The notes under the pieces are model-generated. The model was not told the DNA's origin, did no database searches, and was given only the letters and a program-made list of their open reading frames with translations. DNA of 64,000 nt, taken from the NCBI GenBank assembly GCA_965215505.1, contig OZ244065.1, forward strand, positions 4,992,001 through 5,056,000. Reading direction: 5' to 3'. This DNA comes from Capsulimonadaceae bacterium (GTDB taxonomy: Bacteria; Armatimonadota; Armatimonadia; Armatimonadales; Capsulimonadaceae). Made by a program: the position numbers and the translations under genes. Below, in pieces: positions 2,668 to 62,277 of this stretch (position 1 is its first letter; each line of letters begins with the position of its first letter).

Positions 2668-2870
2668 TGCAATTTTTCACAACCAGGACATTCTAACACA
2701 AACAAGACGTTTTTGCAAGCCGAACCCGGTAAATTTGCGGATTCGCCCGAAACCGGGGCCTGGCCTCGTCCGCCTCGGCCATATGCGTCCGGGGGCTTGG
2801 CCTTGCTATATGGGCACGTTTGCGATATAATAGCCGTATTCAGTTACGGCAGGAAAAGAACACGCGCCTT

Positions 2871-3566
2871 ATGTCTGAAGATGTCGGCTTCCTGCTCCGG
2901 GGCGGCCCCGTGATGTGGCCCCTGTTTCTCTGCGGCGTGGTCAGCGTCGCCGTCATGATCGAGCGTTTCCTCGCCATCGGCGCCGCCGTCCGGGACAACG
3001 AAGCTTTAATGAGCCGCATCTCCACACTGCTCAAGGCCGGGCAGGCCGCCGACGCCCTGGCCTTCTGCGAGCAGTCGCCGGGGCGGATCGCCAAAGTGGT
3101 CGCGGGCGGCCTGCGCTCCGCCCACCTGGACCGCGACCGGATCGAGCGTTCGATGGAGGAGTCGGCCCTGAGAGAGCTGCCCACCCTCTATGACCGCCTG
3201 GGCGTGCTGGACACCATCGTCACCCTCGCCCCCCTCCTGGGGCTACTGGGGACAGTCACCGGCATGATCCACGCCTTCCACGTCGTCGGCTCGGCGGCGG
3301 GCCTGGGCGGCAACCCGAACGCCATCACCAGCGGCGTCTCCGAGGCCCTGGTCGCCACCAGCGTCGGCCTGACCATCGCCATCGTGACCCTGCCCGCCTA
3401 CAACTTCCTGACCGAGCGTGTCAAGGAGAACGTCGGCGAGATGGAGCTGCGCGCCGCCCAGTTCCTGAACGTGGTCGCGGCGATGGACTACGACGAGGCC
3501 CAGAAGACTCAGGCCGAGGCAACGGCTCAGAAGGACGGAGAAACCCATGAAGCTGTCGCGCGGTGA
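2871..3566 (+). CDS. exbB: MotA/TolQ/ExbB proton channel protein
   Basis: GGPVMWPL, LDTIVTLAPLLGLLGTVTGMI, GVSEALVATSVGLTIAI. Confidence 0.92.
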   Translation: MSEDVGFLLRGGPVMWPLFLCGVVSVAVMIERFLAIGAAVRDNEALMSRISTLLKAGQAADALAFCEQSPGRIAKVVAGGLRSAHLDRDRIERSMEESALRELPTLYDRLGVLDTIVTLAPLLGLLGTVTGMIHAFHVVGSAAGLGGNPNAITSGVSEALVATSVGLTIAIVTLPAYNFLTERVKENVGEMELRAAQFLNVVAAMDYDEAQKTQAEATAQKDGETHEAVAR

Positions 3567-3963
3567 GATGAAGCGGGCACGGATCGAGATCATCCCGATG
3601 ATCGACACGATCTTCTTCCTGCTAGTCTTCTTCATGATCACCAGCCTCTCCATGGTGCCCATGTCCGCCCACCGGGTGGACCTGCCCTCCAGCGAAACCG
3701 CCGCGCTGAAGCCGCAGGAGAAGGTCGTCGTCACCATCTCCAAAGAGGGCGACTTCTATGTGGACCGGGAGCGCGTGGCCGAGGGCCAGATCAAGCCGCT
3801 CGTCGCCGCCCGCGTCAGCGAGAACCCGGCCGTCGCCGTCATCATCAACTGCGACAAGGACCAGAAGCTGGACAAGTTCCAGCGCGCCTTCGACCTGATC
3901 AAGCAAGCCAACGCCGGCACCGTGATGATCGCCACCGCGCCCGAAGCGCCTTCGCAGCCTTAG
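3547..3963 (+). CDS. exbD: ExbD/TolR biopolymer transport protein
   Basis: [20 protein letters not shown] transmembrane helix with the conserved Asp. Confidence 0.92.
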   Translation: MKLSRGEMKRARIEIIPMIDTIFFLLVFFMITSLSMVPMSAHRVDLPSSETAALKPQEKVVVTISKEGDFYVDRERVAEGQIKPLVAARVSENPAVAVIINCDKDQKLDKFQRAFDLIKQANAGTVMIATAPEAPSQP

Positions 3964-3988
3964 AGTATCAGAGGATGCCGAGACCACG

Positions 3989-4492
3989 ATGAAGTTCCCG
4001 CCCCGCCAGATCAAGCGCGCTCGGATCGAGATCATCCCGATGATTGATACGATCTTCTTCCTGCTGGTCTTCTTCATGATCACCAGCCTCTCCATGGTCC
4101 GCATGAAGGCCATGACCGTCGTCCTGCCCCGCAACACGCCCCCCGCCGCCGCGAACGCCCCCGCGGGCAACGCCGCCGACCGGCAGCACCTCGTCATCCT
4201 GACCGTCAGCGACGCGGGCGGCTACTACCTGGGGACGCGCCGGATCGCGCCCGAGGCTTTGGGGGCCGCCCTGCAATCGCGGGCCACCTCGGACCCCCAC
4301 GCTGTGGTCGTCCTGAACGTCGCCAAGTCGCAAACCGCCCAGACGCTCATCAAGATCATGGACGCCGTCAACCGTGTCCGCACCCCCGACGGGCAGCCCG
4401 TCTCGGCCCTGATGGCGACGGAACCCGTGGACCAGACGGGACACGCCCTCACTGTGCCGCCCCTGCCGAGTGGAAACCAAGCAAGCCCATGA
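3989..4492 (+). CDS. exbD: Second ExbD/TolR paralog
   Basis: Same N-terminal [20 protein letters not shown] motif. Confidence 0.9.
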
Positions 4493-7400
4493 ACAAAAAG
4501 AAGCGGATCGCCGTCGCCTACCTGGCCTCGTTCCTGCTCAACGGGGTCTTCTGGCTGGTCTACGCCCGCGAGCTGCGTCAGGCGGGGGCCACCCCGCCCA
4601 AGCCCGCCCCCGCCGCCAGCAGCTTCAAGCCCCTCGTCCTGGGCCAGTTCAAGCCCCTCCCGCGCCGCGAACTCCCGCCGCCCGCCACGCGCGCGGCGAA
4701 TGCGCCCAGCGGGATGAAGGCCGGCGAAACCGGCGCGAATGGCAGGCCCGGTACGGCGGACGCCTCCCGCTCCGCTTCCCTAGACAGCCGCCCGGACCAG
4801 GCCGCGTCCGCTTCGGGGGCCGCCGCCCAGGCCGCCGGGCTGTCCGCGGGCGCAAACGCTTCCCGCCCTGGCCTCACGGCGTCGGGTGCCGCCGGTCAGG
4901 CCCCGGCCGCTTCGGCAGGCCTCGCCCCGGCGGGGCTGAAGGCGGCCGTCCAGGGCGGGAAGCAGGCCGTGGGAGGCAGCCGCGCCTCGCTGACGGCGCA
5001 CGGTCAGGCAGGCAAGACCGGGGCAGCAGTCCGGGTGGCGTCCGCGCAGACCCCGTCCGGCACCTCCTCCAGCCATGACGACTTGGCCGCCTCCGAGAAC
5101 GGCGGCGACAGCGCCGCGTCCGCCGCCGCCGTCCGCGCGCAGGCCCTGGCCGCCGCCCGCCTGGCCCTGCTCCAGTCCGCCGCACTCAAGGCGGCCATTC
5201 CGACCGACAAAGACGGCAGCGATAAAGACGGCAAAGACGCGAAGAACCCCGAGCCGGAGAAGGCGAAGGCCGACAAGCAGAAGCCCCCGCCCCCCGGCCA
5301 GAAGGTCGCCCTCAAAGTCATCAAGATGTGGACCCCCCGGCCCGGCCAGAAGTTCAACCTGGCGACGAGTCTGAACATTACCCTCCCGCCGACCCTGACG
5401 CTGGTTCCCGGCCCCCCGCTGACCCCGGAGCAGATGGAAGAGATCCAGAAGCTCCTGCGCCAGCAGAAGCTCAAGCATGTGACGCTTGACCGCAAGCAGC
5501 TCAAAAAGCTGATCGCCGCCCAGCGCATCGCTGAGGACACCAAAAAGCCGGACCAGAAGCAGCCCGGCGACGAGGGCCGCAAGCGCGAAGCCAAGCGCGA
5601 GCAGAAGCCGCGTGTCGCCAAGCCGCGCACCGCCTCCGCGCGCCGCCCCGCCCCCGCCAAGATCGCCATGGCGCGGCCCCGGTCGCCGTTCACCTACAAG
5701 CAGTGGAACAGCGACATGCTCCGCCGCTGGCAGCCGACCTCGCCTGCCGCCGAAGCCGCCCAGGGCGGTGCTGCGGGTGATCCTTCCCAGCGAGTCGCAA
5801 GCAACGGACAGCCCGGCCAAGACCCGGCCTCCCCCCTGGCGCTCCACCCGCCGGACGGTCAGGCGGACGGAGTCCCTGGCACGAATGCCGAGCCTCAGCC
5901 CGGCGCTGCGGGGACGCCCGGCGCTGCACCCGTTGGACCGCCAGGGGCAGACGGAACTCCGAACGCCGCTAACAATCCCCCCGCGTTGGGAACACCTGCC
6001 AACCCCACGACAGGCCAAGCAGGAGCGCAAGGCCAAGCAGGAGCGCAACCTGGTGCTAACGCAGGGCAGCCCGGCGCACCGGCAGGGCAGCCCGGTCAGG
6101 CAGGAGCGCAGGCGGGTCAGCAAGGTTTAGCCGGTCAACAGGGCGTACAGGGCCAGCCTGGAGGGCCAACGACGGGGGCCGCAGGCAATCCATCAAACCA
6201 GGGGAACACCCAGAACGGCCAGCCTGGTGCGCCGCCCGCGTCACCTGCCAATCCCGGTGGTGCCGCTGGGTCAGCGGGCCAGCCCGTGACTCAGGGCACC
6301 CCGCCCACAGCGAGTCAGGGCGGCCAGCCTGGTGCGGCTGGTGGGCCAGCAGGCCAGCCCGGCGGACAAAACACACCGCCGACGGGACAGCCAGGGCAGC
6401 CAAACAACCCGGCCGGTCAGGCCGGTCAACCTGGCCAGCCAGGGGCGCAAGGCCAGCCAGGGGCGCAAGGCCAGCCAGGGGCGCAAGGCCAGCCAGGGGC
6501 GCAAGGCCAGCCAGGGGCGCAAGGCCAGCCAGGGGCGCAAGGCCAGCCAGGGGCGCAAGGCCAGCCAGGGGCGCAAGGCCAGCCAGGGGCGCAAGGCCAG
6601 CCAGGGGCGCAAGGCCAGCCAGGGGCGCAAGGCCAGCCAGGAGGAGCGGCAGGACAGCCGGGCGCGGCGGCGGGTTCTCCAAACCCGCCCGCGCCCGGCA
6701 ATCCGGGTCAGCCCGGCAATCCGGGTCAGCCCGGCAATCCGGGTCAGCCCGGCAATCCGGGTCAGCCCGGCAATCCGGGTCAGCCCGGCAATCCGGGTCA
6801 GCCCGGCAATCCGGGTCAGCCCGGCAATCCGGGTCAGCCCGGCAATCCGGGTCAGCCCGGCAATCCGGGTCAGCCCGGCAATCCGGGTCAGCCCGGCAAT
6901 CCGGGTCAGCCCGGCAATCCGGGTCAGCCCGGCAATCCGGGTCAGCCCGGCAATCCGGGTCAGCCCGGCAATCCGGGTGGCAACCCTCCTGCCGGTCAAC
7001 AAGGCGGGCAAGGACAGCCTGGTCAGCCGGGGCAACCGGGCGGTCAGCCGGGTGCTAACGCTGCTCCGCAAGGTGTGCCGGGCGGACCAGCAGGACAGCA
7101 GGGGCAACCTGGGGCGCAGGGTAATCAACAGGGCGCGAATGAAGGCCAGCCCGGAGGCCAGCCCGGAGGCCAGCCCGGAGGCCAGCCCGGAGGCCAGCCC
7201 GGAGGCCAGCCCGGAGGCCAGCCCGGAGGCCAGCCCGGAGGCCAGCCCGGAGGCCAGCCCGGAGGCCAGCCCGGAGGCCAGCCCGGAGGCCAGCCCGGAG
7301 GCCAGCCCGGAGGCCAGCCCGGAGGCCAGCCCGGAGGCCAGCCCGGAGGCCAGCCCGGAGGCCAGCCCGGAGGCCAGCCCGGAGGCCAGCCCGGAGGCCA

Positions 7401-9273
7401 GCCCGGAGGCCAGCCCGGAGGCCAGCCCGGAGGCCAGCCCGGAGGCCAGCCCGGAGGCCAGCCCGGAGGCCAGCCCGGAGGCCAGCCCGGAGGCCAGCCC
7501 GGAGGCCAGCCCGGAGGCCAGCCCGGAGGCCAGCCCGGAGGCCAGCCCGGAGGCCAGCCCGGAGGCCAGCCCGGAGGCCAGCCCGGAGGCCAGCCCGGAG
7601 GCCAGCCCGGAGGCCAGCCCGGAGGCCAGCCCGGAGGCCAGCCCGGAGGCCAGCCCGGAGGCCAGCCCGGAGGCCAGCCCGGAGGCCAGCCCGGAGGCCA
7701 GCCCGGAACTAACACTCCCAGACAATCCGCTCCAGGACAGCCGGGTCAAGGACAGCCGGGTCAAGGACAGCCGGGTCAAGGACAGCCGGGTCAAGGACAG
7801 CCGGGTCAAGGACAGCCGGGTCAAGGACAGCCGGGTCAGGGACAACCTGGGCAGGGACAACCTGGGCAGGGACAACCTGGGCAGGGACAACCTGGGTCGC
7901 AGGCTGGTCAGCCTGGCCAGCAAGGGGCACAGGCCGGACAGCCGAGTGATGCCGGGGCACAGGCCGGACAGCCGAGTGATGCCGGGGCGCAGGCAGCGGA
8001 TGGGAACCTGGATGCGCCTGCCGCAGCGGCAACACCGGGAACTTCGGGCGCGACGGGCGGCGTCTTGAGCGGAGAGCAGAATGATGGCATGTCGGACACC
8101 GCCGACCCGACGCAGATCACGGCGCAGAACACCGAGTCCACGGGCTTTGACACGCCCGAAACCCGTGCCTATCCTGACCTTCCCTCCGACCCGGTGGGCG
8201 GCGACAAGAAGGGCATTCCGGGCGCTCTGATCCTGCCGCCCTCGCCGCCGATGGGGACCGAGACGGGGAAGGACCCGACGCCGCACCCCGTCAAGACCAA
8301 CATCATCACCCGCGCCACCGGCAAGACGGCGACGCGCGTCAGCCCGGTCACGCAGCCGACGCCCACGAGCCGCGCGCAGGCCGCGCGCAAGGCCACGCCC
8401 GCCCCCATCGGCATGGCGAAGAAGACTGACGCCAAGCCGATCGCGCCCGCCCTGACCGTCGGCTCGACCAGCGCGCGCGGCACCGTCCCGGTCGTCGTCC
8501 TGGCCCGACCGCACCTCGCTCTGGGGACGGTGGCAGACACGATTGACCCGCCGCTGCCGCCCGCCAAAGGCACGCCGCGTTCGCACACCCTCGCGCTCAA
8601 GCAGGAGCCGGTCCGCGCCCTGGCCGCCGCCCGGACTCCCCCGCCCGCCGCACCCGCGCCGCCGACGGAGAGCGTCAAGAAGACCCCGCCCATCGTCCGG
8701 CAGGTCAAGAACAGCGAGGGCATCAAGGAGGGGACCGAACAGCCCTTGCCGCCGACCCCCCTGCCGGACAGCGACATGGAGATCGGCGACGGCTCCGGCC
8801 TGAAGGGCGACTACTACCAGGGCCGTCGTTTCGACCAGTTCCAGTTCACGCGGGCCGACCCGAACATCAACTTCGTCTTCACCGACCTGCCGGACCGGTC
8901 GCCCAGCCCCAAGATCCCCTCGGGCAGCGACTACACCGTCCGCTGGACCGGCAAGATCGCGGCGAAGTATTCCGAGACGTACACCCTCTACACCACCGTA
9001 GACGACGGCGTCCGCGTCTGGATCAACCACAAGCTGATCATCGACGACTGGACACTGCACGGGGCGACCGAGTTCTCCAACCGCTTCACCTTCAAGGCCG
9101 GGGAACAGTACCCTATCAAAGTGGAGTATCTGGAAAGCGCGGGCGGGGCCGCCCTCGTCCGGCTCTACTGGTCCAGCCCGAGCCAGCAGAAGCAGTACGT
9201 CCCCGAGGATGCCTTCTTCTACCCGCTGCCGAGCGACGAGGACGACCTGAAGAAAGACAAGGCCCCGCTGTAA
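4489..9273 (+). CDS. Giant membrane-anchored Gly/Gln/Pro-repeat protein with C-terminal PA14 domain (TonB/TolA position)
   Basis: Basic N-terminus + TM helix (ASFLLNG); GQPG tandem repeats; C-terminal GLKGDYY...YTVRWTGKI...DDGVRVWI...LYWSSP PA14 signature. Confidence 0.85.
6433..6630 (+). repeat. 18-bp tandem repeat x11 (GQPGAQ)
   Basis: ggccagccaggggcgcaa repeated perfectly. Confidence 0.95.
6694..6978 (+). repeat. 18-bp tandem repeat x15 plus a partial copy (PGNPGQ)
   Basis: cccggcaatccgggtcag repeated perfectly. Confidence 0.95.
7144..7707 (+). repeat. 12-bp tandem repeat x47 (GQPG)
   Basis: ggccagcccgga repeated perfectly. Confidence 0.95.
7735..7899 (+). repeat. 15-bp tandem repeat ~x11 in two sequence variants (GQPGQ)
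   Basis: ggacagccgggtcaa units followed by ggacaacctgggcag units. Confidence 0.9.
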
Positions 9274-9297
9274 AACGCGGCGGATGACGCAAGCACC

Positions 9298-10887
9298 ATG
9301 ACGTTACGATCTTCGTTCGCCTGGGCGCGGCCCGCCGCTGCGCTTGGCCTGCTCCTCTGCACCGGCCTCCCCCCCGCTTCGGCCCAGATCGTGGGGGGCC
9401 AGGCGGACGAAGAGGGCACCGCGCCGGTGCAGGTGGCGAAAGTCCCCGCGTCGGCCCGGCTCCAGCCCGTCATCCTGCCCGCTGACCCGAAGCCGGCCAT
9501 CCACGGCCCGCAGATCGTGGGTGCGACGCCTGGCCACCCGTTCCTGTTCCGCATCCCCGCGACGGGTGAGGAGCCGCTGACCTTCGCCTGCGCCGATTTG
9601 CCCCCCGGCCTCACTTTGGACCCGAAGACGGGCATCCTCTCCGGCACCGCCCCGGCGGCGGGCGATCACATCCTGCACCTCACGGCTTCCAACACACAGG
9701 GGAAGGCCACGCGCGCCCTCACCCTCAAAGGCGGCGACCACCCGCTCGCCCTGACCCCGCCGATGGGCTGGGACGCCGTCAACCTCTATGCCAACACCGT
9801 GGACGACGCCAAGACGCGGGCGGCGGCGGACGCCCTAGTCAAGTCCGGCCTGGCCGCGCACGGCTGGTCCACCATCCACATCAATGACACCTGGCAGGGT
9901 GTCCGGGACAAGAAGACCGGCGAGATCCTGCCTAACCGCCGCCGCTTCCCGGACATGAAGGCGCTGGCGGACTATGTCCACGGTCAGGGCCTCAAGTTCG
10001 GCCTGGAATCCTCCGCGACCGAACACACCTGCGCCGGGTTCCCCGGCAGCCTCGGCCACGCCTCCCAGGACGCCGCCACCTATGCCGGCTGGGGCGTGGA
10101 CTATTTGCAATACGACTGGTGCCCCGTGCCGACGCTCGACGAGAAGCCGCCGCCCGACGACCAGACCGCCGCCTTCAAGCAGATGCGGACCGCCCTGGAC
10201 AAGACGGGCCGGGACATCGTCTTCGGCGTGGACAACTTCGGCGCGGGCGATCCCGGCGACTGGGCACCAGGCGCGGGCGCGAACACCTGGGTCACCAGCC
10301 GCGAGGTGTTCGACGACTGGCCGATCATGCTGCGCGCCCTGTTCGCGCAGCCCTGGACCGCCGACCGGGCCGGGCCGGGCCACTGGGGCAATCCCGGCCT
10401 GCTGATGGCGGGCAAATTCGGCGTCGCCGCCGTGCATCCCACCCGCCTGACCTTCCCCCAGCAGATGGCGCAGATCTCGCAGTGTGCCCTGCTCGGAGCG
10501 CCCCTGTGGCTCTCCTGCGACCTGACCTCGCTCGACCCAAACGCCTTCCACCCGTCCGTCACGGCCATGCTGACCGACGACGAGGTGCTGGACGTGGACC
10601 AGGACCCCGCCGGGCACCCCGCCGCCCAGATCACCGGCAACCGGTTGGTGCAGATATGGTCCAAGCCGCTCGCCGACGGCACGTTCGCCGTCGGCCTGTT
10701 CAACCTCACCGACACGCCCCACCAGCTCTGGGTCAGCCTCCCGAAAGTAGGACTCACCGGCGCGCAGCCGGTCCGTGACCTGTGGCTGCATCAGGACTTG
10801 GGCGACTTCACCGGCACGTTCGCCACCGACCTCCCCGCCTACGGGGTGGCACTGATCAAGGTCGGCAAGCCGGCCGCGCCGAAATAG
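9298..10887 (+). CDS. Secreted GH27 (alpha-galactosidase-like) protein with putative Ig (He_PIG) domain; active site degenerate
   Basis: LPPGLTLDPKTGILSG Ig motif; LALTPPMGW, RFPDMKALADYVHGQGLKFG, WGVDYLQYDWC, VRDLW. Confidence 0.85.
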   Translation: MTLRSSFAWARPAAALGLLLCTGLPPASAQIVGGQADEEGTAPVQVAKVPASARLQPVILPADPKPAIHGPQIVGATPGHPFLFRIPATGEEPLTFACADLPPGLTLDPKTGILSGTAPAAGDHILHLTASNTQGKATRALTLKGGDHPLALTPPMGWDAVNLYANTVDDAKTRAAADALVKSGLAAHGWSTIHINDTWQGVRDKKTGEILPNRRRFPDMKALADYVHGQGLKFGLESSATEHTCAGFPGSLGHASQDAATYAGWGVDYLQYDWCPVPTLDEKPPPDDQTAAFKQMRTALDKTGRDIVFGVDNFGAGDPGDWAPGAGANTWVTSREVFDDWPIMLRALFAQPWTADRAGPGHWGNPGLLMAGKFGVAAVHPTRLTFPQQMAQISQCALLGAPLWLSCDLTSLDPNAFHPSVTAMLTDDEVLDVDQDPAGHPAAQITGNRLVQIWSKPLADGTFAVGLFNLTDTPHQLWVSLPKVGLTGAQPVRDLWLHQDLGDFTGTFATDLPAYGVALIKVGKPAAPK

Positions 10888-10892
10888 ACACT

Positions 10893-12395
10893 ATGGACCG
10901 TACACATTACCTCCCGCTGCTGGCACTCTCGCTCTGGGGCGTACAGGTCCCCGCTGTCGCCCAGCGTGTCCCGCCGACCCCATCACCCGCCGACCCTGCC
11001 GCGCCCGCCACGCCGACTAGGCCGGTCAAGCCGCCGGACCCCAAAGTCGCCGCCCTCATGGACGCCTTGCGCGCCAAGGATTTGGCCCAGGTCAAGCGCA
11101 TGCTGGCGGCGGGGGACAGCGCGAACAGCGCCCTTGACGACGGCACCTCCGCCCTGATGACGGCTTCGGGGACGGGCGACCCCGCCCTCGTCAGCCTGCT
11201 GCTGTCGCGCGGCGCGGACGTCAACGCCCGCGCCTATGACGGCGACAGTGCCCTTCTGGAAGCCGCCCACAAGGGCAGCGTCCCCGCCCTGACGCTGCTG
11301 CTGGCGCACGGTGCGGATGTGAAAGCGGCCGACAAGCTCGGCGTCACGCCGCTCATGGAGGCCGCCCATTCCGGCAACCCCGCCGCCGCCGCGCTGCTGC
11401 TGGCGCGCGGCGCGGACGCAAACACGCTGGACACCAAAGACGGCTACTCGGCCCTGATGATCGCCGCCTACTCCGGCTATTCCCGGACGGTGCAGGTCCT
11501 GCTCGACCACGGCGCGGACCCGAAAGCCTCGGACCTGAACGCGCGGACGCCGCTGATGAACGCCGCCTACTCCGGCGACGTGCCCAGCCTCACGCTGCTT
11601 CTGGCGAAGGGGGCAGACCTGAACGGCCGCGACCGGGACGGCTTCACGCCGATCGCGCTGGCCGCCGGCGCGGCCCGGCTCGCCGCCACCCAGGCATTGC
11701 TGGCAAAAGGGGCGGACGTGAACGCCCGCACCGTCACCGGCTTCACGCCGCTGATGCAGGCCGCCGCAGCGGGCAGCATCCCCGTCATGCAGCTCCTGCT
11801 CGACAAGGGCGCAGATAAGGACGCCGTGACGACCGGCGGGGCGACGGCGGCCATCGTGGCGGCCTATGGCGGGCGCGGGTCGGCCGTCAAGCTGCTGCTA
11901 GACCAGGGGGCCGACGTCAACGCCTCAGACAGCGCCGGCCACACCGCCCTCATGGGCGCGGCCTTCGCCGGCGATGCCCCGCTCGCCAAGCTGCTGCTGG
12001 GCCGGGGGGCCGAGGTCGCCACCAGGACCGAAACCGGCTTCACCCCGCTGATGCAGGCCGCCTACGTCGGCAGCGCCGCCATCGCCGGCATGCTGCTGGA
12101 CAAAGGGGCGGACCTGGAAGCCAAGAACAACCTGGGCTACACCGCCTTGATGCAGGCCGCCGCCTCCGGCAGCCTGCCCACCGCCCGCCTCCTGCTGGAG
12201 CGCGGCGCGGACGTCGGCGTTGAAGACAACAAAGGGAATAATGCCCTCTGGTGGGCCTTGCGCCACCGCCACGACGACGTCGCCGCCCTGCTCCGCAAGG
12301 CCGGGTCGCCCGAGCCGGCCACCCTGCCGGATGCACCGCCCCCCGCCCCCGCGCCGCCGGTCAGTCCCTTCAATCCCTATTCGCGCTCTGTGTGA
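10893..12395 (+). CDS. Secreted ankyrin-repeat protein
   Basis: Signal peptide plus about 13 GxTPLMxAA...LLxxGADVN repeats. Confidence 0.92.
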   Translation: MDRTHYLPLLALSLWGVQVPAVAQRVPPTPSPADPAAPATPTRPVKPPDPKVAALMDALRAKDLAQVKRMLAAGDSANSALDDGTSALMTASGTGDPALVSLLLSRGADVNARAYDGDSALLEAAHKGSVPALTLLLAHGADVKAADKLGVTPLMEAAHSGNPAAAALLLARGADANTLDTKDGYSALMIAAYSGYSRTVQVLLDHGADPKASDLNARTPLMNAAYSGDVPSLTLLLAKGADLNGRDRDGFTPIALAAGAARLAATQALLAKGADVNARTVTGFTPLMQAAAAGSIPVMQLLLDKGADKDAVTTGGATAAIVAAYGGRGSAVKLLLDQGADVNASDSAGHTALMGAAFAGDAPLAKLLLGRGAEVATRTETGFTPLMQAAYVGSAAIAGMLLDKGADLEAKNNLGYTALMQAAASGSLPTARLLLERGADVGVEDNKGNNALWWALRHRHDDVAALLRKAGSPEPATLPDAPPPAPAPPVSPFNPYSRSV

Positions 12396-12483: not shown

Positions 12484-12780
12484 ATGATCATTCGCACCCG
12501 CAAGGCTATGCTCGCCCTGCTCCCGGCCACCCTGGCCCTGTTCGCGCCCGTCGCCCCGTCGTTCGCCCAGATGGCGCACAAGCCCAACTTCATCCAGCGG
12601 CACCCGACCATGACCGGCATCGCCGCAGGCGTCGCCACCCACCACGCCCTCAAGGTCGCCGCGCGCAACCGCAAGATGCATGGCCAGAAGCTGGACTTCG
12701 CCCAGCGGCACCCCACCATGTCGGCCATCGGGGCCGGTGCGCTCACCCGCCACGAGATCAAGGCGCATACGGCCCACTAG
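12484..12780 (+). CDS. Small secreted His-rich protein with two internal repeats
   Basis: GGAGG RBS; signal peptide; FIQRHPTMTGIAAG / FAQRHPTMSAIGAG; followed by a terminator. Confidence 0.7.
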   Translation: MIIRTRKAMLALLPATLALFAPVAPSFAQMAHKPNFIQRHPTMTGIAAGVATHHALKVAARNRKMHGQKLDFAQRHPTMSAIGAGALTRHEIKAHTAH

Positions 12781-12804: not shown

Positions 12805-12838
12805 GCCCGCCGCTCTCTGACAGCGGCGGGCTTTTTTT
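12805..12838 (+). terminator. Intrinsic terminator
   Basis: gcccgccgct-loop-agcggcgggc followed by T7. Confidence 0.85.
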
Positions 12839-17823: not shown

Positions 17824-19141
17824 GATAGTGTCAAGTTGTTTCTGTAAAAGCTGGGAGCATCCTTGCGCGGCTGTTATTCTGTGGTCGCCCGTTCTATGAA
17901 GGTCAGGTAGGCTTTGCCTGCCTGCCAGTCGTCGCTGATCTCCATCAGCACCGCGCTCGCGAGGCGCAGGCAGGACGCCTCGTTCGGGAAGATGCTCGCC
18001 ACCTGTGTGCGCCGCTTCACCTCGCGGTTGACCCGCTCCACGCCGTTGGTGGTCCGCAGCAGACGGCGGTGCGTCTCGGGGAAGGCGAACACGGCCAAGC
18101 CTTCGGGCAGGGTTTCCTCCATCCAGGCCGAAAGCTTGGGCGCAGTCGCCTCGTACTTCTGCACCGTCCGCTTCAGCAGTGCGTCGGCCTCGGCCCTGTC
18201 CTGAGCGCCAAAGATGGCGCGGATGTCTGCCGCCACGGGCACCTTCATGTCCTGTCTGGGGACGTGGGCTGAGGCGTTCTGCTGCAAGTGGAACTGGCAG
18301 CGCTGCCACGGCACGCCGCCCAGCACCGCCAGCCGTGCGGCTTTCAGCCCCTCGTGGGCGTCACTGATGACGAGGCGCACCCCGCACAGGCCACGCTGGA
18401 TCAGGCTTTGCAGGAACGCGCGCCAGTGGACCTCGTGTTCGGACAGAGCAACCGAGACGCCCAGCACGGAGCGTTTGCCCGTTTCATCCACGCCGATGGC
18501 GATCAGCACGGCGGCTTTCTGGACAAGCCCCGACTGGCGCACCCGTTCGTAACGGGCGTCCAGGTAGACGTAGGGCTGCGGCGCAAGCGGGCGACTGCGC
18601 CACGCCGCAAGAGTCGCGTCGAGTTCCTTCGCCGCCTGGCTGACCTGGCCCGAGGAGACCTCGAAGCCGCAGAGCCGTTCGGTGATGGCGGCCACCTTGC
18701 GGGTGGAGACGCCCTGCACATACATCTCGGCCAGAGCCAACTTCAGGGCGCGCTCGGAGCGCGTGCCTTTCTCCAGGCTCTGTGGGTAGAACCCGCCCTC
18801 CCGCACCTGGGGCACGGCGACGGTGATCTGGCCCAGGCGGGTAACAAGCGTCTTGTCCTTGTAGCCGTTGGCGTGGCCTGTGCGCGCCTCCGTGCGCTCA
18901 TTGGGGGCCGCGCCCAGATGCTTCTGGCGCTCAATTTGCATGGCGGCGTTGAGCAGGACGCGGAAGAGATCGGGCAGAGCGTCCAGCCCTTGCGTCGTGA
19001 GCTGCTCCAAAAGGGGCGCGGACAGAGTAGAATCGTCCTGGTAGGTCATGGGTGGTGTTCCTTGCTGTGTGGCAACTCCACGGATACTCCCTGACCTACT
19101 ACTTCAGGCCATCGCTTTTACAGAAAACATTTTACAATAAC
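17824..19141 (-). mobile_element. IS256-family insertion sequence, 1318 bp, 8-bp TSD GGTTCCCT
   Basis: Imperfect terminal IRs gatagtgtcaagttgtttctgtaaaagc / gcttttacagaaaacattttacaataac; TSD at 17816-17823 and 19142-19149. Confidence 0.95.
17874..19049 (-). CDS. IS256-family (Mutator) transposase
   Basis: EMYVQGVSTRKV, YLDARY, ISDAHEGL, WQRCQFH, RTTNGVERVNREVKRRT. Confidence 0.96.
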   Translation of the reverse strand: MTYQDDSTLSAPLLEQLTTQGLDALPDLFRVLLNAAMQIERQKHLGAAPNERTEARTGHANGYKDKTLVTRLGQITVAVPQVREGGFYPQSLEKGTRSERALKLALAEMYVQGVSTRKVAAITERLCGFEVSSGQVSQAAKELDATLAAWRSRPLAPQPYVYLDARYERVRQSGLVQKAAVLIAIGVDETGKRSVLGVSVALSEHEVHWRAFLQSLIQRGLCGVRLVISDAHEGLKAARLAVLGGVPWQRCQFHLQQNASAHVPRQDMKVPVAADIRAIFGAQDRAEADALLKRTVQKYEATAPKLSAWMEETLPEGLAVFAFPETHRRLLRTTNGVERVNREVKRRTQVASIFPNEASCLRLASAVLMEISDDWQAGKAYLTFIERATTE

Positions 19142-20206
19142 GGTTCCCTTGCAAGAAGACAAAGAACAACGGAATGCTCATTTGAGATGGCTTGTCGAGT
19201 TGGTGATGAATTAAAGGCTTCCCGGCCGAAGGGAACGACAGGTACGCTAGGTTTTGTAGGACGGCGTGACGGTGGCGCTTATGGCGGTTTGGCATTAGAC
19301 AGGCAGAGTTTGATCTGCTACGGCTACGGCGCGAGCCGCCGCATGGGCAAAGCGTCACTCTCGGAACAGCGCACCGATGACACGACTGCCAGCCTCTTTT
19401 CGGATGACGTTGACCTAATCAACGCCGAAGAATGGTTACTGCAAGCCGACTACGCCGCCAGCAGAGCGCCCAAAGATAGCACACGCGCCCAGGAGCGCCG
19501 GGACCAAGTTGTCGGCATCCTGAAAGAACTTCTGCCGGATGTCTTAGAGGTGCGGTTTAGCGCCTCTGAGGAGGAAATCGGCCCACCCATCGTCGAGTTC
19601 CACACCCCCTATGGCTGGGTACGCCTGAAAGACCTGAGCCTCGGCTACCGGACGCTCCTCACCTGGATGGTGGACCTCGCTAGCCGCCTCTTTGACCGCT
19701 ACCCCAAGAGCAAGAACCCGCTGGCGGAACCTGCCGTCGTGCTGGTGGACGAGATTGATCTGCACCTGCACCCGCGCTGGCAGCGGACACTGATGAGTTT
19801 CCTCAGCGAGCGATTCCCCAACACGCAGTTCATCGCCACCGCCCACAGCCCCCTCGTCGTCCAGGCCGCTGCGGACGCCAACATCGTCCTGCTGCGCCGC
19901 GAGGGCGACCATGTGGTGATTGACAACGACGTGGAGCGCATCCAGAACTGGCGCGTGGATCAGATACTCACCTCCGAGCTGTTCGGCCTGGAAAGCGCCC
20001 GCCCGCCGCAGGTCAGCCCCGCGCTGGAAGAGCGCAAAAAGATACTCGCCAAGCCGCGTCTGACCAAGGTGGACGAGAAGCGGCTGGCGGAGCTAGAGGC
20101 GCAGATCGGGGACCTGCCGACCGGCGAGACGCCGGAAGACTTGCAGGCGATGGACATCATCCGGCGCGCGGCGGCCTTGCTGGAAGCGCAGTAGGGGCGA
20201 CCGGCG

Positions 20207-20965: not shown

Positions 20966-21297
20966 ATCCATGAGTGGAGCGGGTATAATAGTAGACAGAA
21001 TGACTGTACGAGGGAGAGGCGAAAAGGCGGCAAAACAGCAGCAACGAAATTTGCAAAAACGAACTGCCTGCCGCGTAAGGTCCATGCCATGAATAGCACG
21101 GTCGCCTGAACGATTGGGGCACCTGTTCGGGAAGGGCAGCAAGGCAGCGAGAAATGCAGCAGCAAATTTGTCAAAACGAACTAGTCACCGCCTTCCTCGG
21201 CCTGCGCCCATGAAACTTCCCGCGCACGGCAGCGTATCTCTCTGAGACGCTGATGCCCTTTGGGGGGCATGATCTCGCAACCGAGGAGGAACCTCTG

Positions 21298-22254
21298 ATG
21301 ACCCTGCGCCCGCCCTGTCGCTCCGCCTGCGTTCCCGTACTGACCATGCTGCTGTCTTGCGCCGTCGCCGGCCTGCCCGCTGTCGCCGCCCCCGCCAGGA
21401 AGGCGAAAGCCACCGTCAAGACCAAAGCCGCCGCCCCGCCTCCCTCCGCGCATCCGGCCCCGCCTTCGGACAAGAAAGGGGCGACGCCACTGATGCTGGC
21501 CGCCGCCGGTGGCAAGACCGAGATCGTCTCGAAGCTGCTCGCCGGGGGCGCAGACGTCAACGGCCCGTCCAAGACCGGCAACACGCCCCTCACTTACGCC
21601 GTCTTCGCCGGACAGGAGGCCGTCTGCAAGCAGCTCCTCGCCCACGGGGCCGACCCGAACCGGGTGAACGCTGACGGCTACGGACCCCTGGCCGTGGCCG
21701 TATTCAAGGACCGTCCCATACTCGCCGCCCTCCTCCTGGACCACGGCGCGGCCGTGGACCTCGCCGGCAAGAAGGGCGGGACGCCGCTGGTCATGGCCGC
21801 CATGCTGGGCCACGCCCCCATGGTAAGTCTGCTGCTGGCGCGCGGCGCGAAGCCCGAGGCCGTCACCCCCGGCGGCTATACGCCGCTGATGGTGGCTGCC
21901 CTCAGCGGCAGCGTCCCCGTCGCCCAGGCCCTCCTGGACGGGGGCGCAGACCTGGACGCCGAGAGCGACCAGGGCCAGACCGCCCTGCTGCTGGCCGCCG
22001 CGAAGGGCCGGACCGAGGCCGTCAAGTTCCTGCTGGAGCGCGGCGCGGACCTGGGCGGCTCGGACATCAACGGCACCACCCCCCTCATGGCCGCCGCCGT
22101 CAGCGGCAGCCTCCCCACCGTCCAGCTCCTTCTCGACCACGACGCCGACCCCAATGCCCGCAACAACGACGACTTGACGGCGGCGGCCATCGCCACCTAC
22201 CTCAAAAAGCCAGCCGTCGCCGACCTGCTGCGGAAGGCGGGTGGGGGAGAATAG
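21298..22254 (+). CDS. Secreted ankyrin-repeat protein
   Basis: GAGGAG RBS; signal peptide; about 8 ankyrin repeats. Confidence 0.9.
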   Translation: MTLRPPCRSACVPVLTMLLSCAVAGLPAVAAPARKAKATVKTKAAAPPPSAHPAPPSDKKGATPLMLAAAGGKTEIVSKLLAGGADVNGPSKTGNTPLTYAVFAGQEAVCKQLLAHGADPNRVNADGYGPLAVAVFKDRPILAALLLDHGAAVDLAGKKGGTPLVMAAMLGHAPMVSLLLARGAKPEAVTPGGYTPLMVAALSGSVPVAQALLDGGADLDAESDQGQTALLLAAAKGRTEAVKFLLERGADLGGSDINGTTPLMAAAVSGSLPTVQLLLDHDADPNARNNDDLTAAAIATYLKKPAVADLLRKAGGGE

Positions 22255-31047: not shown

Positions 31048-32373
31048 TCAGACGGTCGCAGTCTCGCGCTCCCGCACCGGTTTCGCCTTGTAGCGCGGGG
31101 CGACCGGCAGGCGGGAGCGGTTGTCTTTGATCCAGGCGTAGGCGCGGCGGCCTAGCTGCGGCACGGGAGGGATGTAGAGAATCGGCGCGAGCAGGACGGT
31201 GACGGGCATCTGCCAGGCGATCTGGCGGAAGGCGTCGAAGCCAGCGAACTGCCGCCCGTCGGGGCGGACGGCGTAGGCGGCCTCCTCGGCGTCCTCAAAG
31301 CGGACGCCGGTCGCGGCCAGGGCGGCGCGGTCGTGCGAGTCCACGAACGTGATCTGCCGGAAGACATCCAGGAACCGGACGACCAGAAGCGAGGAACGGC
31401 AGAAATCGCACTCGCCGTCATAGACCAGCCGCAGGGGCGTCAGGGTCAGGGGCCGCTTGGCCCAAGCCAGGAAGTTCTTGATGTCGTCACCGGTCAGAAA
31501 GTTAAGGTAGGACGTGATCATCAGGGCCGAGAACAGGGGGATGTTGAAGGTGTACTCGATCCCCAGGTGCAGGGCGACGCCTGCCGCCAGAACATACAGC
31601 CGCAGGCGCGGCACCCAGACGAACGTCGCCAGCGCGAACTCCACGACCACCGTCCCCCAGGTGAACAGGTTGATGACGTAGAGGTTGTCCCGGCCCAAGA
31701 TCGGGAAGCGCACCGACTCGCTCAGGTGCATCGGGTAGTAAACCGCCGTCCCGTCCATCCAGGGCGGCCCGGTCGCCTTGCTGAGTGAGGCGCAGAGGTA
31801 CAGCACGGCGATCTGGATCTGCATCAGCCGCTGCGCCCAGGGGACGATCAGGGGCGGCGCGTCGTCCTCCCGGCCCTTGAGGACGCGCCACAGCCGGTCC
31901 AGGGAGCAGGAGGCACCGGCGGGCGAGAGCAGCAGATAGACCGCCAGCACGATCATGACCGTGTCGCCGCTGTTGTGGATCGGGGCGTCCCGGTTGTGGA
32001 GCAGGGTCAGGCCCAGATAGACCAGCACGGCGCTCGTCCGCGTCCACAGCCCCAGGGTCAGGCACAGCGCGGCCAGAAGGTAGACCACGAACAGCAGTGT
32101 CAGGAAATGGTCGGCACCCGGCAGGGCAAGCAGGTTGATCTGATACCCCGCCCCAAGCCCCTGGCCGGTCGCCGGGCCGTTGGTCGCGTTGTATTCCAGG
32201 GCCTGCGCGACCGGCAGGACCCCCCCCTGCGAGAACCACAGGAAACGCTCGGGGAAGAACAGAAGGCCGTAGGCCAGGGTCCAGAAGCCGAAGACCAGCC
32301 GGAACAGGCCCAGCGGGACCGAAGACACCGGGCCGAACCAGAACCCATTCCAGCCGCGCCTGATGTCCTTCAC
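31048..32373 (-). CDS. HTTM (VKGC/SdpB-like) membrane protein fused to a DCC1-like thiol-disulfide domain
   Basis: LGLFRLVFG, LGLWTR, SLDRLW, YLCASLSK..GPPWMDGTAV, LHLGI; C-terminal VYDGECDFC; GTGA overlap with the upstream gene. Confidence 0.85.
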   Translation of the reverse strand: MKDIRRGWNGFWFGPVSSVPLGLFRLVFGFWTLAYGLLFFPERFLWFSQGGVLPVAQALEYNATNGPATGQGLGAGYQINLLALPGADHFLTLLFVVYLLAALCLTLGLWTRTSAVLVYLGLTLLHNRDAPIHNSGDTVMIVLAVYLLLSPAGASCSLDRLWRVLKGREDDAPPLIVPWAQRLMQIQIAVLYLCASLSKATGPPWMDGTAVYYPMHLSESVRFPILGRDNLYVINLFTWGTVVVEFALATFVWVPRLRLYVLAAGVALHLGIEYTFNIPLFSALMITSYLNFLTGDDIKNFLAWAKRPLTLTPLRLVYDGECDFCRSSLLVVRFLDVFRQITFVDSHDRAALAATGVRFEDAEEAAYAVRPDGRQFAGFDAFRQIAWQMPVTVLLAPILYIPPVPQLGRRAYAWIKDNRSRLPVAPRYKAKPVRERETATV

Positions 32374-33035
32374 TTCAAGTCCTCCGGGTGGATGGCGAGG
32401 ACGAACGGCCCGCTGCCGGCCTGGAGCGGCGCGGCCTGGACAGGGGGCATCGGGACGCCGGGCGGCGGGATCACGCGGGAGTGCCGGATCAGCATGACGC
32501 TGACGGGCCGGTTGTGTGGGTCGTGGTCGTTGGCGCGGGCTGCGTAGCGCGCAAGCCCCACCCAGACCGCCACGCTGTTGGCGTGGGTAGCGACCTCGAC
32601 GAGCTTGCGCCAGCGCTCCTCCTCGTAGCGCCGGACGTAGCCCATGTGGGACATGCGCGGGAAGAACCAGCCGCGCTTCTCGCCGTCGGCGTAGGTGATC
32701 TGGGCCTCGAGAGTGACGTCCAGCTTGTCCGGGTAGGGCGAGAACATGCTCCAAGACTGCGCGAACGAGGTCAGGGTCATGTAGGTCCGCACCAGGCCGA
32801 CGCCGACGGGCGACTGTTCGATGGCGCTGTTGCTGGGTGAAAGCCAGACCGCCAGGGCGAACAGGTGCCAGACGATGAACACGTTGACCAAACGGCGCGT
32901 CCACCAGCGCCGTTCCAGCCGGCTCACCCGCCGCAGACGGACGGCGGCCCGCTGGCCCTCGGTCCGGCCCTGGCCGGAGGACTTCGCCTCCTCGCGCGCT
33001 TCTTCTACCGCCTCATCGGATGTGACTACGAACAT
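32370..33035 (-). CDS. HTTM-partner protein (DUF5819/SdpA-like)
   Basis: One TM helix, then [10 protein letters not shown] and ERWRK motifs. Confidence 0.6.
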
Positions 33036-51579: not shown

Positions 51580-52989
51580 CTAAGGCGCGGCCTGACTCCA
51601 CTGGACGACCCAGGGGTGCTTCAGGGCCAGGCGCTGGGCCTGTTCGGGGGCGACCATGTGCAGGAAGGCGAGGTATCCGCCGGCGTAGGCGCGGGCGTCT
51701 TTGCCCATCTGCCGGGAGACTTCGGCGACGCCTAATGTCTCGCAGCGGTGCAGGACGGCGCGGAAGCGGCGCAGGTCGGGGCGCGAGACGTGGGGCGTCT
51801 CGTTGACGACGATGCCGGTCACGACCTGGCGGTGCTGGGGGCGCAATACGGAGGTTTTCTCCTCGTTCACCGTCAACCCCACATCCGCGATGATCCGGCG
51901 GGCCAGGGCGAGCAGGATGCCGACCGGGGCCGACGATTCGGCGTGCGAGAAGACCAGGTCGTCGGCGTAGCGGGAGTACCGGAAGCCAAGCGCCTCGGCG
52001 GCCCCGGCAAGGCGTGAGTCCATGCGGTGGCACAGGAGGTTCGTCAGGGCGGGCGACGTGCAGGCCCCTTGCGGCAGACTGCGCTCGCCAATCGCGACGA
52101 AATGCGGCTTGCCGTCGAGCAGGACGGCGGCGCGCGGGGCCTCGGTGGCGAGCAATGAGAAGAGAGTCGCGACGCCGCCGCTGTAGCCCATCTCGCGGAA
52201 CAGGCGGCGGACGCGCGGCAGGGTGATGGAGGGGAAGAAGTCTTTGAGGTCAATGCGGGCGACGACGGCCCGGCCCGTGTGCCGGGCGGCGTTGTCCACG
52301 ACGGACAGGCCGGGGCGGAAGGCGGCGGCGGCCTCATGCACCGGCAGCGGGGCGAGGATGTTTTCCAGCAGCCAGCTTTGGGCGGCGCGCAGGCGGCGCT
52401 TGGGGGAGGAGATGACGCGCGTCCCGCCCCGCTTCTTCGGGATGGCGAACCGGGAATAGTGGTCCAGGCTCGCCGCCCCCCGGTGGTAAGTCAGCCAGGC
52501 CAGCTCGCGCTCCTCGATGCCGATGGCCTGAGCGACATCGGTCGCGGAGGTGAGGAGCGGCAGGCCCAGGGCGGCAAGCTCCTCCGGCTCGCCCGCGTCG
52601 TAGACCAGGCTCTTGGAGACGCCTCCGCCCAGGAAGGGCAGGGTCTTATGCCGCCACTCGGCGTCGTCGGCCTTTCTCTGCGCCTCTTCCTTGAGGCGGG
52701 CCTCGCGGCGGGCGGTGCGTTCGGCCCGGACGCGCTCGATGCGCTTGCGGCGGACCTCCAGGAGCAGTCGGGGGATGTCGCCCGCTTCGGCGATCTGCGC
52801 CTCGACGGCGGCGAGGTCGGTCTGCGCCGACGCCATCTCGTCATAGAGCGCGCGGAGCTGCTTCTCGGCAGTCGCGGCCTGGGCGGCGACTTCGGGGTTC
52901 GGGGGCCAGAAGCCGAGCCGCGTCATCTCCTCGCGGATGAAAGCCTGCTTGCCGACCTGCTGGTAGCGTTTCTTCTGCTCCGCGTTCAC
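51580..52989 (-). CDS. Retron-type reverse transcriptase (Mx162-like, long N-terminal extension)
   Basis: IPKKRGGTRVISSP, region X NAARH, DLKDFFPSI, LPQGACTSP, YSRYADDLVFS, region Y QVVTGIVVN; GTG start overlaps the upstream TGA. Confidence 0.92.
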   Translation of the reverse strand: MNAEQKKRYQQVGKQAFIREEMTRLGFWPPNPEVAAQAATAEKQLRALYDEMASAQTDLAAVEAQIAEAGDIPRLLLEVRRKRIERVRAERTARREARLKEEAQRKADDAEWRHKTLPFLGGGVSKSLVYDAGEPEELAALGLPLLTSATDVAQAIGIEERELAWLTYHRGAASLDHYSRFAIPKKRGGTRVISSPKRRLRAAQSWLLENILAPLPVHEAAAAFRPGLSVVDNAARHTGRAVVARIDLKDFFPSITLPRVRRLFREMGYSGGVATLFSLLATEAPRAAVLLDGKPHFVAIGERSLPQGACTSPALTNLLCHRMDSRLAGAAEALGFRYSRYADDLVFSHAESSAPVGILLALARRIIADVGLTVNEEKTSVLRPQHRQVVTGIVVNETPHVSRPDLRRFRAVLHRCETLGVAEVSRQMGKDARAYAGGYLAFLHMVAPEQAQRLALKHPWVVQWSQAAP

Positions 52990-61987: not shown

Positions 61988-62070
61988 GGATTGTAATGCT
62001 GTAATCGCCACGGGTTGAAACCCGAGGCACCGAAGTCCCCTACGTCCGGGGGATGTGATGGCGGCTTGAT

Positions 62071-62263
62071 TCCCCGGATTGAAATCCGGGTCTTCGGTAA
62101 AGCGATTGTCCGCCTGCGCGGACACAAGAGGCGGCCATGTAGGGGCGCGATTCATCGCGCCCTCTTTCCCGCTCGCGCCCTCGTTTCCTGTCGTATCTCC
62201 CGGTTTCTCTGTCCACGCAGGTGGACAACTGCACTTACGAAGACCCGGATTTCAATCCGGGGA
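62071..62263. repeat. Composite intergenic repeat: ~54-bp imperfect inverted arms around a GTAG REP
   Basis: Arms at 62071-62124 and 62210-62263 (ccccggattgaaatccggg core); gtaggggcgcgattcatcgcgccct at 62139-62163. Confidence 0.75.
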
Positions 62264-62277
62264 CAGGCCACATCGGT

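Follow-up and report, generated by a model that had tools for sequence, protein, structure and literature searches.

A six-gene operon of a Capsulimonadaceae bacterium, a soil-type member of the Armatimonadota, probably encodes a machine of the Ton/Tol class, driven by the proton motive force (pmf), in which the force transducer carries a lectin head. The operon occupies positions 2871-12395 of the + strand of the window, by which we mean the whole 64,000-nt stretch that was analyzed (assembly GCA_965215505.1, contig OZ244065.1, positions 4,992,001-5,056,000 of the forward strand). Its tightly packed genes encode, in order, ExbB, two ExbD proteins (ExbD1 and ExbD2), a giant protein of 1594 amino acids (aa), a GH27-like protein and an ankyrin-repeat protein. 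exbB and exbD1 overlap, 25 bp lie between the two exbD genes, the ATG of the giant gene overlaps the TGA of exbD2 as ATGA, and the last two junctions measure 24 bp and 5 bp. The initial annotation of the window, read from the letters alone, had described these reading frames and the ATGA coupling as they are found here; it had also proposed that the co-oriented downstream genes encode a secreted GH27-like protein and an ankyrin protein, with which Pfam and the signal-peptide-like starts agree.

Anchor, motor, linker and head

Relatives of the giant protein were gathered by searching a protein collection with its C-terminal 415 residues, which returned 209 proteins at E up to 0.001; among the best 120 of these, at least 15 cover at least 88% of the C-terminal region and have PA14 as their sole Pfam domain. 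These 15 were aligned with P0083 (46% coverage), the window protein and P0008 from a congener, giving a family alignment of 18 full-length members of 939-1594 aa. The N-terminus of the giant protein reads MNKKKR and leads into a hydrophobic helix holding S14-F-L-L-N18. This basic start and the S-x3-N transmembrane (TM) helix were already part of the initial annotation, and the motif is now seen to hold family-wide, N18 being invariant and S14 present in 17 of the 18 members, with Ala in the remaining one.

The motor genes are related to those of a receptor-linked Ton system in the same genome. ExbD1 and ExbD2 of the operon are 43% identical and form a heterologous pair, both kept as distinct orthologues in related loci, and NCBIfam places the motor proteins nearer the TolQ/TolR than the ExbB/ExbD models, with all scores far below the cut-offs. 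The 6.18-Mb genome contains six ExbD genes in four loci, together with a flagellar MotA/MotB pair. Two of the loci are ordinary Ton loci: one at 5.54 Mb encodes ExbB-ExbD-TonB (TonB_C 38 bits) adjoining a Plug protein, and one at 4.64 Mb (C1:4636395-4641991, - strand) encodes ExbB-ExbD-ExbD-TonB, also adjoining a Plug protein, with a weak TonB_C match of 19 bits. ExbB and ExbD1 of the operon are 57% and 54% identical to their counterparts at 4.64 Mb, which makes the operon motor a paralogue of a working Ton motor. Because the receptor-linked TonB of that locus has the helix motif S-V-F-I-N, Ser-x3-Asn appears to be the native anchor motif of this motor subtype. Asn can reportedly replace His20 of TonB in E. 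coli, to go by the title of a 2011 paper by Swayne and Postle. In E. coli cryo-EM structures, Ser16/His20 of TonB and Ser18/His22 of TolA are described as contacting TM1 of ExbB/TolQ (10.1101/2024.10.08.617233).

Genome-wide searches gave four TonB_C matches and three Plug matches, none of them within the window, in line with the earlier observation that no TonB-dependent receptor is encoded there. The description of the giant protein as standing "instead of TonB" is right for this operon and wrong for the genome, which has two separate TonB loci. The giant protein had likewise been said to lack a TonB_C domain, and not even a cryptic one came to light: the TonB_C and TolA families gave no match in the whole protein (Pfam, E up to 0.01) or in its non-repetitive parts (E up to 5), and Pfam had no match in residues 1-430.

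The fourth motor locus of the genome (C1:1315810-1320639, - strand) encodes a short PA14-headed paralogue of 547 aa behind a 698-aa TPR gene, ExbB and ExbD. This paralogue has an S-V-L-I-H helix, a Pro/Lys-rich linker, a Gly-rich stretch and PA14, and the order TPR-ExbB-ExbD-PA14 is kept in a congener. The protein collection contains 33 homologues; of 24 genomes examined in the genus, about 7, the source genome among them, have full-length copies.

Beyond the membrane helix of the giant protein, a proline-flanked alternating strand at residues 46-59 is kept in the family and resembles the TonB D-box in pattern (PMC10907165). A family-specific middle module follows, with W281, Q287, Q315, L328, Q337, P400, F401 and W406 invariant in the 18-member alignment. 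Its profile found just 17 representatives among 1.84 billion proteins, and the six best-scoring full-length matches were proteins already in the alignment. A model of a 939-aa homologue, built from the 18-sequence alignment, contains a TM helix at residues 3-32, two short helices and the PA14 sandwich; its mean predicted local distance difference test score (pLDDT) is 40.5, and 765 of the 939 residues fall below 50. A model of the C-terminal 370 aa of the giant protein (mean pLDDT 47) is confident only in the PA14 sandwich and leaves the conserved linear motifs before the head unmodelled. Neither model assigned a fold to the middle module.

Between the middle module and the head lies a linker of extreme composition. 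About 1300 aa of low-complexity linker had been claimed; a long linker is present, and its extreme Gly/Gln/Pro tract can be narrowed to the 805 aa from residue 421 to residue 1225, set within about 1400 residues predicted to be disordered on the homologue model. The tract is 33% Gly, 21% Gln, 21% Pro and 11% Ala, with 21 charged residues and one aromatic, and it is built of (GQPGAQ)x11, (GNPGQP)x15, (GGQP)x46 and (GQGQP)x10 blocks. The first three of these are encoded by perfect (100%) DNA tandem repeats at 6433-6641 (18 bp, 11.6 copies), 6693-6978 (18 bp, 15.9 copies) and 7143-7707 (12 bp, 47.1 copies), and a fourth repeat, at 7734-7898 (15 bp, 10.9 copies), is 95% perfect. Because the DNA repeats are perfect, the linker appears to have expanded recently and its length is probably variable; across the family the Gly-rich linker measures 149-836 aa, and draft assemblies of relatives break exactly at the repeats. 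By a rough estimate from random-coil scaling, the two ends of a chain of some 1200 disordered residues would lie a few tens of nm apart, on a contour length of several hundred nm, so the arm could span the periplasm as a loose coil or reach far beyond it.

Three conserved linear motifs precede the PA14 head, which lies at the C-terminus as first reported and scores 79.3 bits on PF07691, against a curated cut-off of 24. The closest solved protein to the head by sequence in a search of the PDB is the RsgI3 PA14 dyad (6qe7, E 3.1e-66), followed by 6qdi (E 2.3e-47), and Foldseek with the modelled head also put these two entries on top, with 42-45% identity to the 6qe7 chains. PA14 clusters were the sole leads of a look-alike search in the ESM Atlas. 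The PA14 domain of RsgI3 is described as binding pectin and that of RsgI4 xylan, through a calcium ion that an Asp-cis-Asp pair coordinates together with calcium loop 2, with specificity set by the calcium-loop sequence (PMC6852018). In the giant protein family the Asp pair D1505-D1506 is invariant in 18 of 18 members, and a Glu of the head aligns with Gln130 of RsgI3, the polar ligand in calcium loop 2. Since the Asp pair is kept and Glu stands at the loop's polar ligand position, the head is likely to be a calcium-type lectin.

Conserved neighborhood and secreted partners

A scan with one genome per species yielded 14 family loci, all from metagenome-assembled genomes (MAGs) labelled Armatimonadota, Capsulimonas, Capsulimonadales, Abditibacterium, Abditibacteriaceae or "bacterium". 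Seven of the 14 start inside the giant gene at a contig end, because the repeats evidently break assemblies. In the seven loci with upstream sequence, orthologues of ExbB, ExbD1 and ExbD2 lie directly upstream in every case, with ExbB doubled in two, so that the exbB-exbD-exbD-[TM...PA14] gene order first read in the window is conserved. The ankyrin gene is found downstream in 13 of the 14 loci, the contig of the fourteenth ending too early; the GH27-like gene is found in 11, with two contigs ending too early and one locus lacking it within 3.8 kb. The order of the two partners differs by lineage, GH27-Ank or Ank-GH27, with linkage kept, and in a Capsulimonadales MAG they are fused as one 903-aa open reading frame (ORF; L032:10748-13459). 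Because the arrangement recurs in every related locus where it is visible, the linkage goes beyond chance. Looking beyond close synteny, we found no gene families common to the 14 loci other than the motor, the giant protein and the ankyrin and GH27-like proteins.

In one congener (G015, L025:15363-18664), the GH27-like and ankyrin genes are split over several frames, which may reflect decay or assembly indels.

Outside the Armatimonadota, none of 65 PA14 loci in a contig scan had adjacent ExbB/ExbD, a scan that was seeded with one PA14 subtype, that of the giant protein, so absence of such systems from other phyla is not implied; in one verrucomicrobial MAG (L093) ExbB-ExbD lies 7 kb downstream of the PA14 gene. 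Other PA14 proteins of the relatives, in frames of 820-1500 aa, were next to ExbBD in 0 of 7 loci.

The GH27-like protein aligns well to solved alpha-galactosidases (4nzj, E 2.4e-69; 1uas, E 3.3e-54). The fold family and the secretion first read for it stand; the protein is not a canonical enzyme. In the rice enzyme, position 130 (numbering of 1uas) is the nucleophile and position 185 the acid/base. At the first (YDxC), 8 of 10 loci have Asp, the window among them, and the other two have Glu. At the second (RxxxDI), Asp is present in none of the 10: the window copy has Glu336, and the others have Gln (four), Gly (four) or Ala (one). The missing acid/base Asp makes the label "glycosidase" doubtful, and by its residues the protein looks like a glycan-binding pseudo-enzyme or an enzyme of unusual mechanism rather than a plain alpha-galactosidase. 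Orthologues in the Abditibacteriaceae have added NPCBM and other carbohydrate modules.

Complexes of the ankyrin protein were predicted with the last 370 aa of the giant protein and with its middle module, using our own alignments, so that the benchmark counts given here are only rough. All three runs scored the contact between the ankyrin protein and the C-terminal chain at 0.59, against at most 0.02 in three controls. Replacing the C-terminal chain brought the score down to 0.02, which identifies this chain as the predicted site of contact. At least 36% of contacts recur between runs, with partner pLDDT of at least 85. Of 157 solved complexes 116 passed the mark applied, as did 2 of 215 mismatched pairs; just 18 of these solved complexes, and both passing mismatches, did so at scores up to 0.60. 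The prediction thus lends weak support to a contact between the ankyrin protein and the C-terminal 370 aa. Taken with the co-inheritance of the two genes and the Ank-GH27 fusion, it makes an adaptor role for the ankyrin protein likely.

A second secreted ankyrin-repeat protein is encoded at 21253-22254 of the window (+ strand) and is 45% identical over 177 aa to that of the operon.

The features of the operon are collected in Table 1. The ATG at 2871 is the likely start of exbB, because the promoter-like site overlaps the upstream TTG at 2820. A small ORF between the ankyrin gene and the terminator encodes a signal peptide and two QRHPTMxxIxAG repeats; it is conserved in the two closest relatives only and has one weak paralogue in the source genome.

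Table 1. Features of the operon and of the giant protein, with positions in the window.
Feature	Position	Strand	Basis
Promoter-like site TTGCTA-17-TATAAT, 5' of exbB	2803..2831	+	Consensus match only
exbB/tolQ-like proton channel subunit, 231 aa from ATG 2871	2871..3566	+	Pfam MotA_ExbB E 4.1e-31
exbD1/tolR-like, 138 aa, TM with conserved Asp (IPMIDTIFF)	3547..3963	+	Pfam ExbD E 1.3e-25
exbD2/tolR-like, 167 aa	3989..4492	+	Pfam ExbD E 7.7e-21
Giant PA14-headed TonB/TolA-like putative transducer, 1594 aa	4489..9273	+	Anchor, PA14, ATGA coupling
Transmembrane anchor, aa 8-27, with S14-x3-N18	4510..4569	+	N18 18/18, S14 17/18 members; helix in homologue model
D-box-like proline-flanked strand, aa 46-59	4624..4665	+	Family consensus LKPVxLGxYxPLPP
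Family-specific middle module: KMWxPxPGQKF, two short helices, SPFxYKxW	5281..5706	+	Invariant residues, homologue model
Gly/Gln/Pro low-complexity linker, aa 421-1225, with DNA tandem repeats	5749..8163	+	Composition, repeat scan
Linear motif GIPGALxLPPSPPxGTExGK	8212..8271	+	Invariant G1245, L1247, L1249, P1250, P1251, P1253, P1254, G1256, G1260
12-residue conserved linear motif	8449..8484	+	Invariant G1325, S1328, G1331
22-residue conserved motif running into PA14	8710..8778	+	Family alignment
PA14 domain, aa 1436-1574, invariant Asp1505-Asp1506	8794..9210	+	Pfam E 3.4e-22
Secreted GH27-like protein, 529 aa: signal peptide, He_PIG, Melibiase_2, Melibiase_C	9298..10887	+	Pfam Melibiase_2 E 4.8e-42
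Secreted ankyrin-repeat protein, 500 aa, about 13 repeats, signal peptide	10893..12395	+	Pfam ankyrin
98-aa secreted ORF, possibly final gene of the unit	12484..12780	+	Kept in close relatives only
Terminator-like hairpin: 10 pairs, 9 G-C, T7 tail	12805..12831	+	Strong

Elsewhere in the window, a Mutator-family transposase adjoins an AAA_21 (AbiEii-like) ATPase at 17874-20194, and an HTTM domain is fused to a DCC1-like thiol-disulfide oxidoreductase at 31048-32904 (- strand). A reverse transcriptase (RVT_1) followed by a 664-aa protein ending in BRCT, at 51580-54980 (- strand), may be a defence or retroelement pair. An RNA-repair pair, Pnkp (kinase-phosphatase-ligase) and the Hen1 methyltransferase, is encoded at 59414-63926 (- strand).

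Proposed mechanism and its alternatives

On the basis of domains and motifs, a linkage kept across loci, and a motor paralogous to that of a real Ton system, we infer coupling of the motor to the giant protein, sugar binding by its head, binding by the ankyrin protein, and a direction and purpose for the force. The motor would consist of an ExbB pentamer and an ExbD1/ExbD2 heterodimer, and the 1594-aa protein would be the force transducer, its Ser-x3-Asn TM helix anchored beside ExbB. The proline-flanked strand after the membrane would be held by the ExbD pair, as described for the TonB D-box (PMC10907165). The conserved linear motifs immediately ahead of the PA14 head are probably where the ankyrin protein takes hold, and for the degenerate GH27-like protein binding of a galactose-type glycan is a likelier role than hydrolysis. 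The head would catch a carbohydrate ligand at the outer side of the periplasm or further out, and the motor would then pull or wind the arm, so as to move, unfold or import a glycan-bearing target. The target may be a polysaccharide that is being imported or exported, a glycosylated component of the envelope, or the cell wall.

A bolder version, rather improbable as a whole, would have the system work as a fishing line: the PA14 hook, on a cable with a contour of several hundred nm, would reach polysaccharide at or outside the outer membrane, rotation of ExbB-ExbD1D2 would reel it in, and the ankyrin protein and a catalytically disabled GH27-like lectin would take the catch in the periplasm. 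If true, glycans could be captured or taken up without either a TonB-dependent receptor or SusC/D.

Several observations weigh against a motor-driven lectin arm. The conserved module encodes no outer-membrane partner, pore or receptor, and obvious periplasmic glycans for the head to meet are few. A linker of 149-836 residues is an odd force cable unless it is wound by the motor. The likeness of residues 46-59 to the D-box is one of pattern and not a measured fit. Calcium loop 2 of the head reads ESAGG, which is of neither the pectin nor the xylan type. The window copy of the GH27-like protein presumably deviates at further sugar-site positions (MGWDAVN, INDTW, LQYDWC), and its apparent lack of several canonical sugar-site residues weakens the glycan reading of this partner. 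The module is also patchily distributed: among 41 genomes (40 relatives and the source), the middle module was found in 5 and the C-terminal part (E <1e-10) in 6, and several near-complete congeners are without it, so the module is accessory or dispensable. The genes that flank it, for APS kinase and PSP1, are separated by megabases in five congeners without the module, and no clean insertion or deletion could be read there.

The same distribution bears on the alternative of a Tol-like envelope tether, in which the giant protein would be an analogue of TolA, its PA14 head binding peptidoglycan or an outer-membrane glycolipid in the service of envelope integrity or division. The TolQ/TolR-leaning scores of the motor, all of them far below cut-offs, are in keeping with such a role, as are the long Ala-rich helical stretches of some family members, which are like domain II of TolA. 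Also in its favor, neither a TolA_C match nor a TolB above cut-off was found in the genome, and the short paralogue stands behind a TPR gene, an arrangement like that of CpoB in tol-pal operons. Both PA14-headed families are patchy, the short one as well as the giant one, and a housekeeping tether should be universal, so an accessory distribution speaks against a Tol-like housekeeping function. With no Pal- or TolB-like gene in the module, and with nearest PA14 relatives that sense plant polysaccharides, we regard the tether as unlikely.

A second alternative would leave the motor out altogether. The helix would serve only as a signal anchor or be cleaved off as a signal peptide, the giant protein would be a secreted elastic or capsule-associated lectin, and the ExbBD set would be used by TonB proteins encoded elsewhere. 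The N-terminal helix is indeed followed by small residues (V-Y-A/R) that may form a signal-peptidase site, a further point against a membrane-anchored transducer; relatives carry many secreted PA14 proteins away from ExbBD, which is adjacent in 0 of 7 further loci of relatives and in 0 of 65 PA14 loci of other taxa; and repeats that are perfect and probably vary in length are characteristic of surface proteins. Against this, the Ser and Asn within the helix are kept in 17 and 18 of the 18 members, and signal peptides do not conserve such residues. The start codon of the giant gene overlaps exbD2, a dedicated ExbB-ExbD-ExbD set is linked to it in 7 of 7 loci across lineages, and each of the two TonB genes of the genome has a motor of its own. 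A motor-independent matrix protein or adhesin is therefore quite unlikely.

Highly improbable is a polysaccharide sensor of the RsgI kind, in which PA14 would sense a glycan and the signal cross the inner membrane: the closest solved PA14 (E 3.1e-66) does serve as the sensor in the anti-sigma factor RsgI3, and both proteins run in outline from a TM helix through a long linker to a carbohydrate module at the C-terminus (PMC6852018), but only about 7 residues precede the helix, leaving no cytoplasmic anti-sigma or other signalling domain, Pfam is blank over the first 430 residues, and the conserved module has no sigma factor gene.

Comparison with known systems

Proton-driven 5:2 motors power nutrient import (Ton), envelope integrity (Tol), flagella and gliding. 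The vWA transducers of a 2025 survey raised the question of what else such motors power (PMC12204202), and a motor-driven, PA14-headed transducer would add a second type of head, a lectin. The operon combines a conserved set of partners, a likely ankyrin adaptor and a disabled glycosidase fold, with an extreme, spring-like linker. It makes testable whether a Ton-type motor can act on carbohydrate rather than on a TonB box and how force passes through a long disordered cable, and it bears on how polysaccharides are handled by bacteria without SusC/D-type systems. Cultured members of the Armatimonadota are named in the related records (Capsulimonas, Abditibacterium). Searches of the literature pairing a PA14 domain with ExbD, or with TonB and ExbB, returned only unrelated work on GH3 enzymes, and among the matches listed for Capsulimonas or Abditibacterium with TonB, gliding or capsule nothing was relevant.

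The giant protein is anchored, like TonB, by one N-terminal TM helix that bears a Ser-x3-polar motif along one face; its motif is Ser-x3-Asn, as in the receptor-linked TonB of the genome, where TonB otherwise has Ser-x3-His (SHLS). It is also like TonB in the proline-flanked strand after the membrane, which resembles the D-box in pattern, in the long non-globular linker and the small C-terminal head, and in the position of its gene directly behind exbB-exbD(-exbD). It is unlike TonB in having a PA14 head and no TonB_C, in a module without a TonB-dependent receptor; in a Gly/Gln/Pro linker of up to 836 aa, where TonB has a short Pro-rich rod; and in the ankyrin and GH27-like partners co-conserved with it. 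With TolA and TolQ-TolR it shares the motor family, the logic of the anchor and a long linker that is partly helical in some family members. It differs from Tol-Pal in having no TolA_C, no TolB or Pal in the module or above cut-off in the genome, and an accessory distribution.

GldLM/PorLM and AglRQS-Glt are 5:2-type proton motors driving long periplasm-spanning proteins that act on surface adhesins, and the operon would share this outline. No sequence relation to GldM or Glt proteins was seen, none having been sought, and the module has no type 9 or Glt genes. The head is like that of RsgI3 and RsgI4 of cellulolytic clostridia (6qe7, 6qdi), with about 42-45% identity and the Asp-Asp calcium motif. 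Unlike these, the giant protein has no cytoplasmic anti-sigma domain, its head is single rather than a dyad, its calcium loop 2 is ESAGG where theirs are QHVRA or NNTGN, and it is probably coupled to a proton motor in a diderm.

The initial annotation had called the system possibly undescribed. That does not hold for the general design, since motor-driven force transducers of unknown function, with a head other than that of TonB, were described in 2025 from the Planctomycetes-Verrucomicrobia-Chlamydiae (PVC) group and other bacteria, with an SHLS-motif TM helix, a disordered linker and a vWA head (PMC12204202); it does hold for the PA14 head, the term "PA14" occurring 0 times in the main text of that paper. 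The giant protein resembles these transducers, as that text describes them, in its TM helix, disordered linker and globular head that is not of the TonB type, and in the tolQ-like and two heterologous tolR-like genes beside it, and the short paralogue is like the vWA cassettes in its upstream TPR gene. The giant protein departs from them in its PA14 head, in Asn for the conserved His, and in the lack of a TPR gene upstream in the window. What is new by comparison is the phylum, Armatimonadota; the giant Gly/Gln/Pro linker with its perfect repeats; the Ser-x3-Asn anchor, held in common with a native TonB; and the conserved ankyrin and disabled GH27-like partners in place of TPR proteins.

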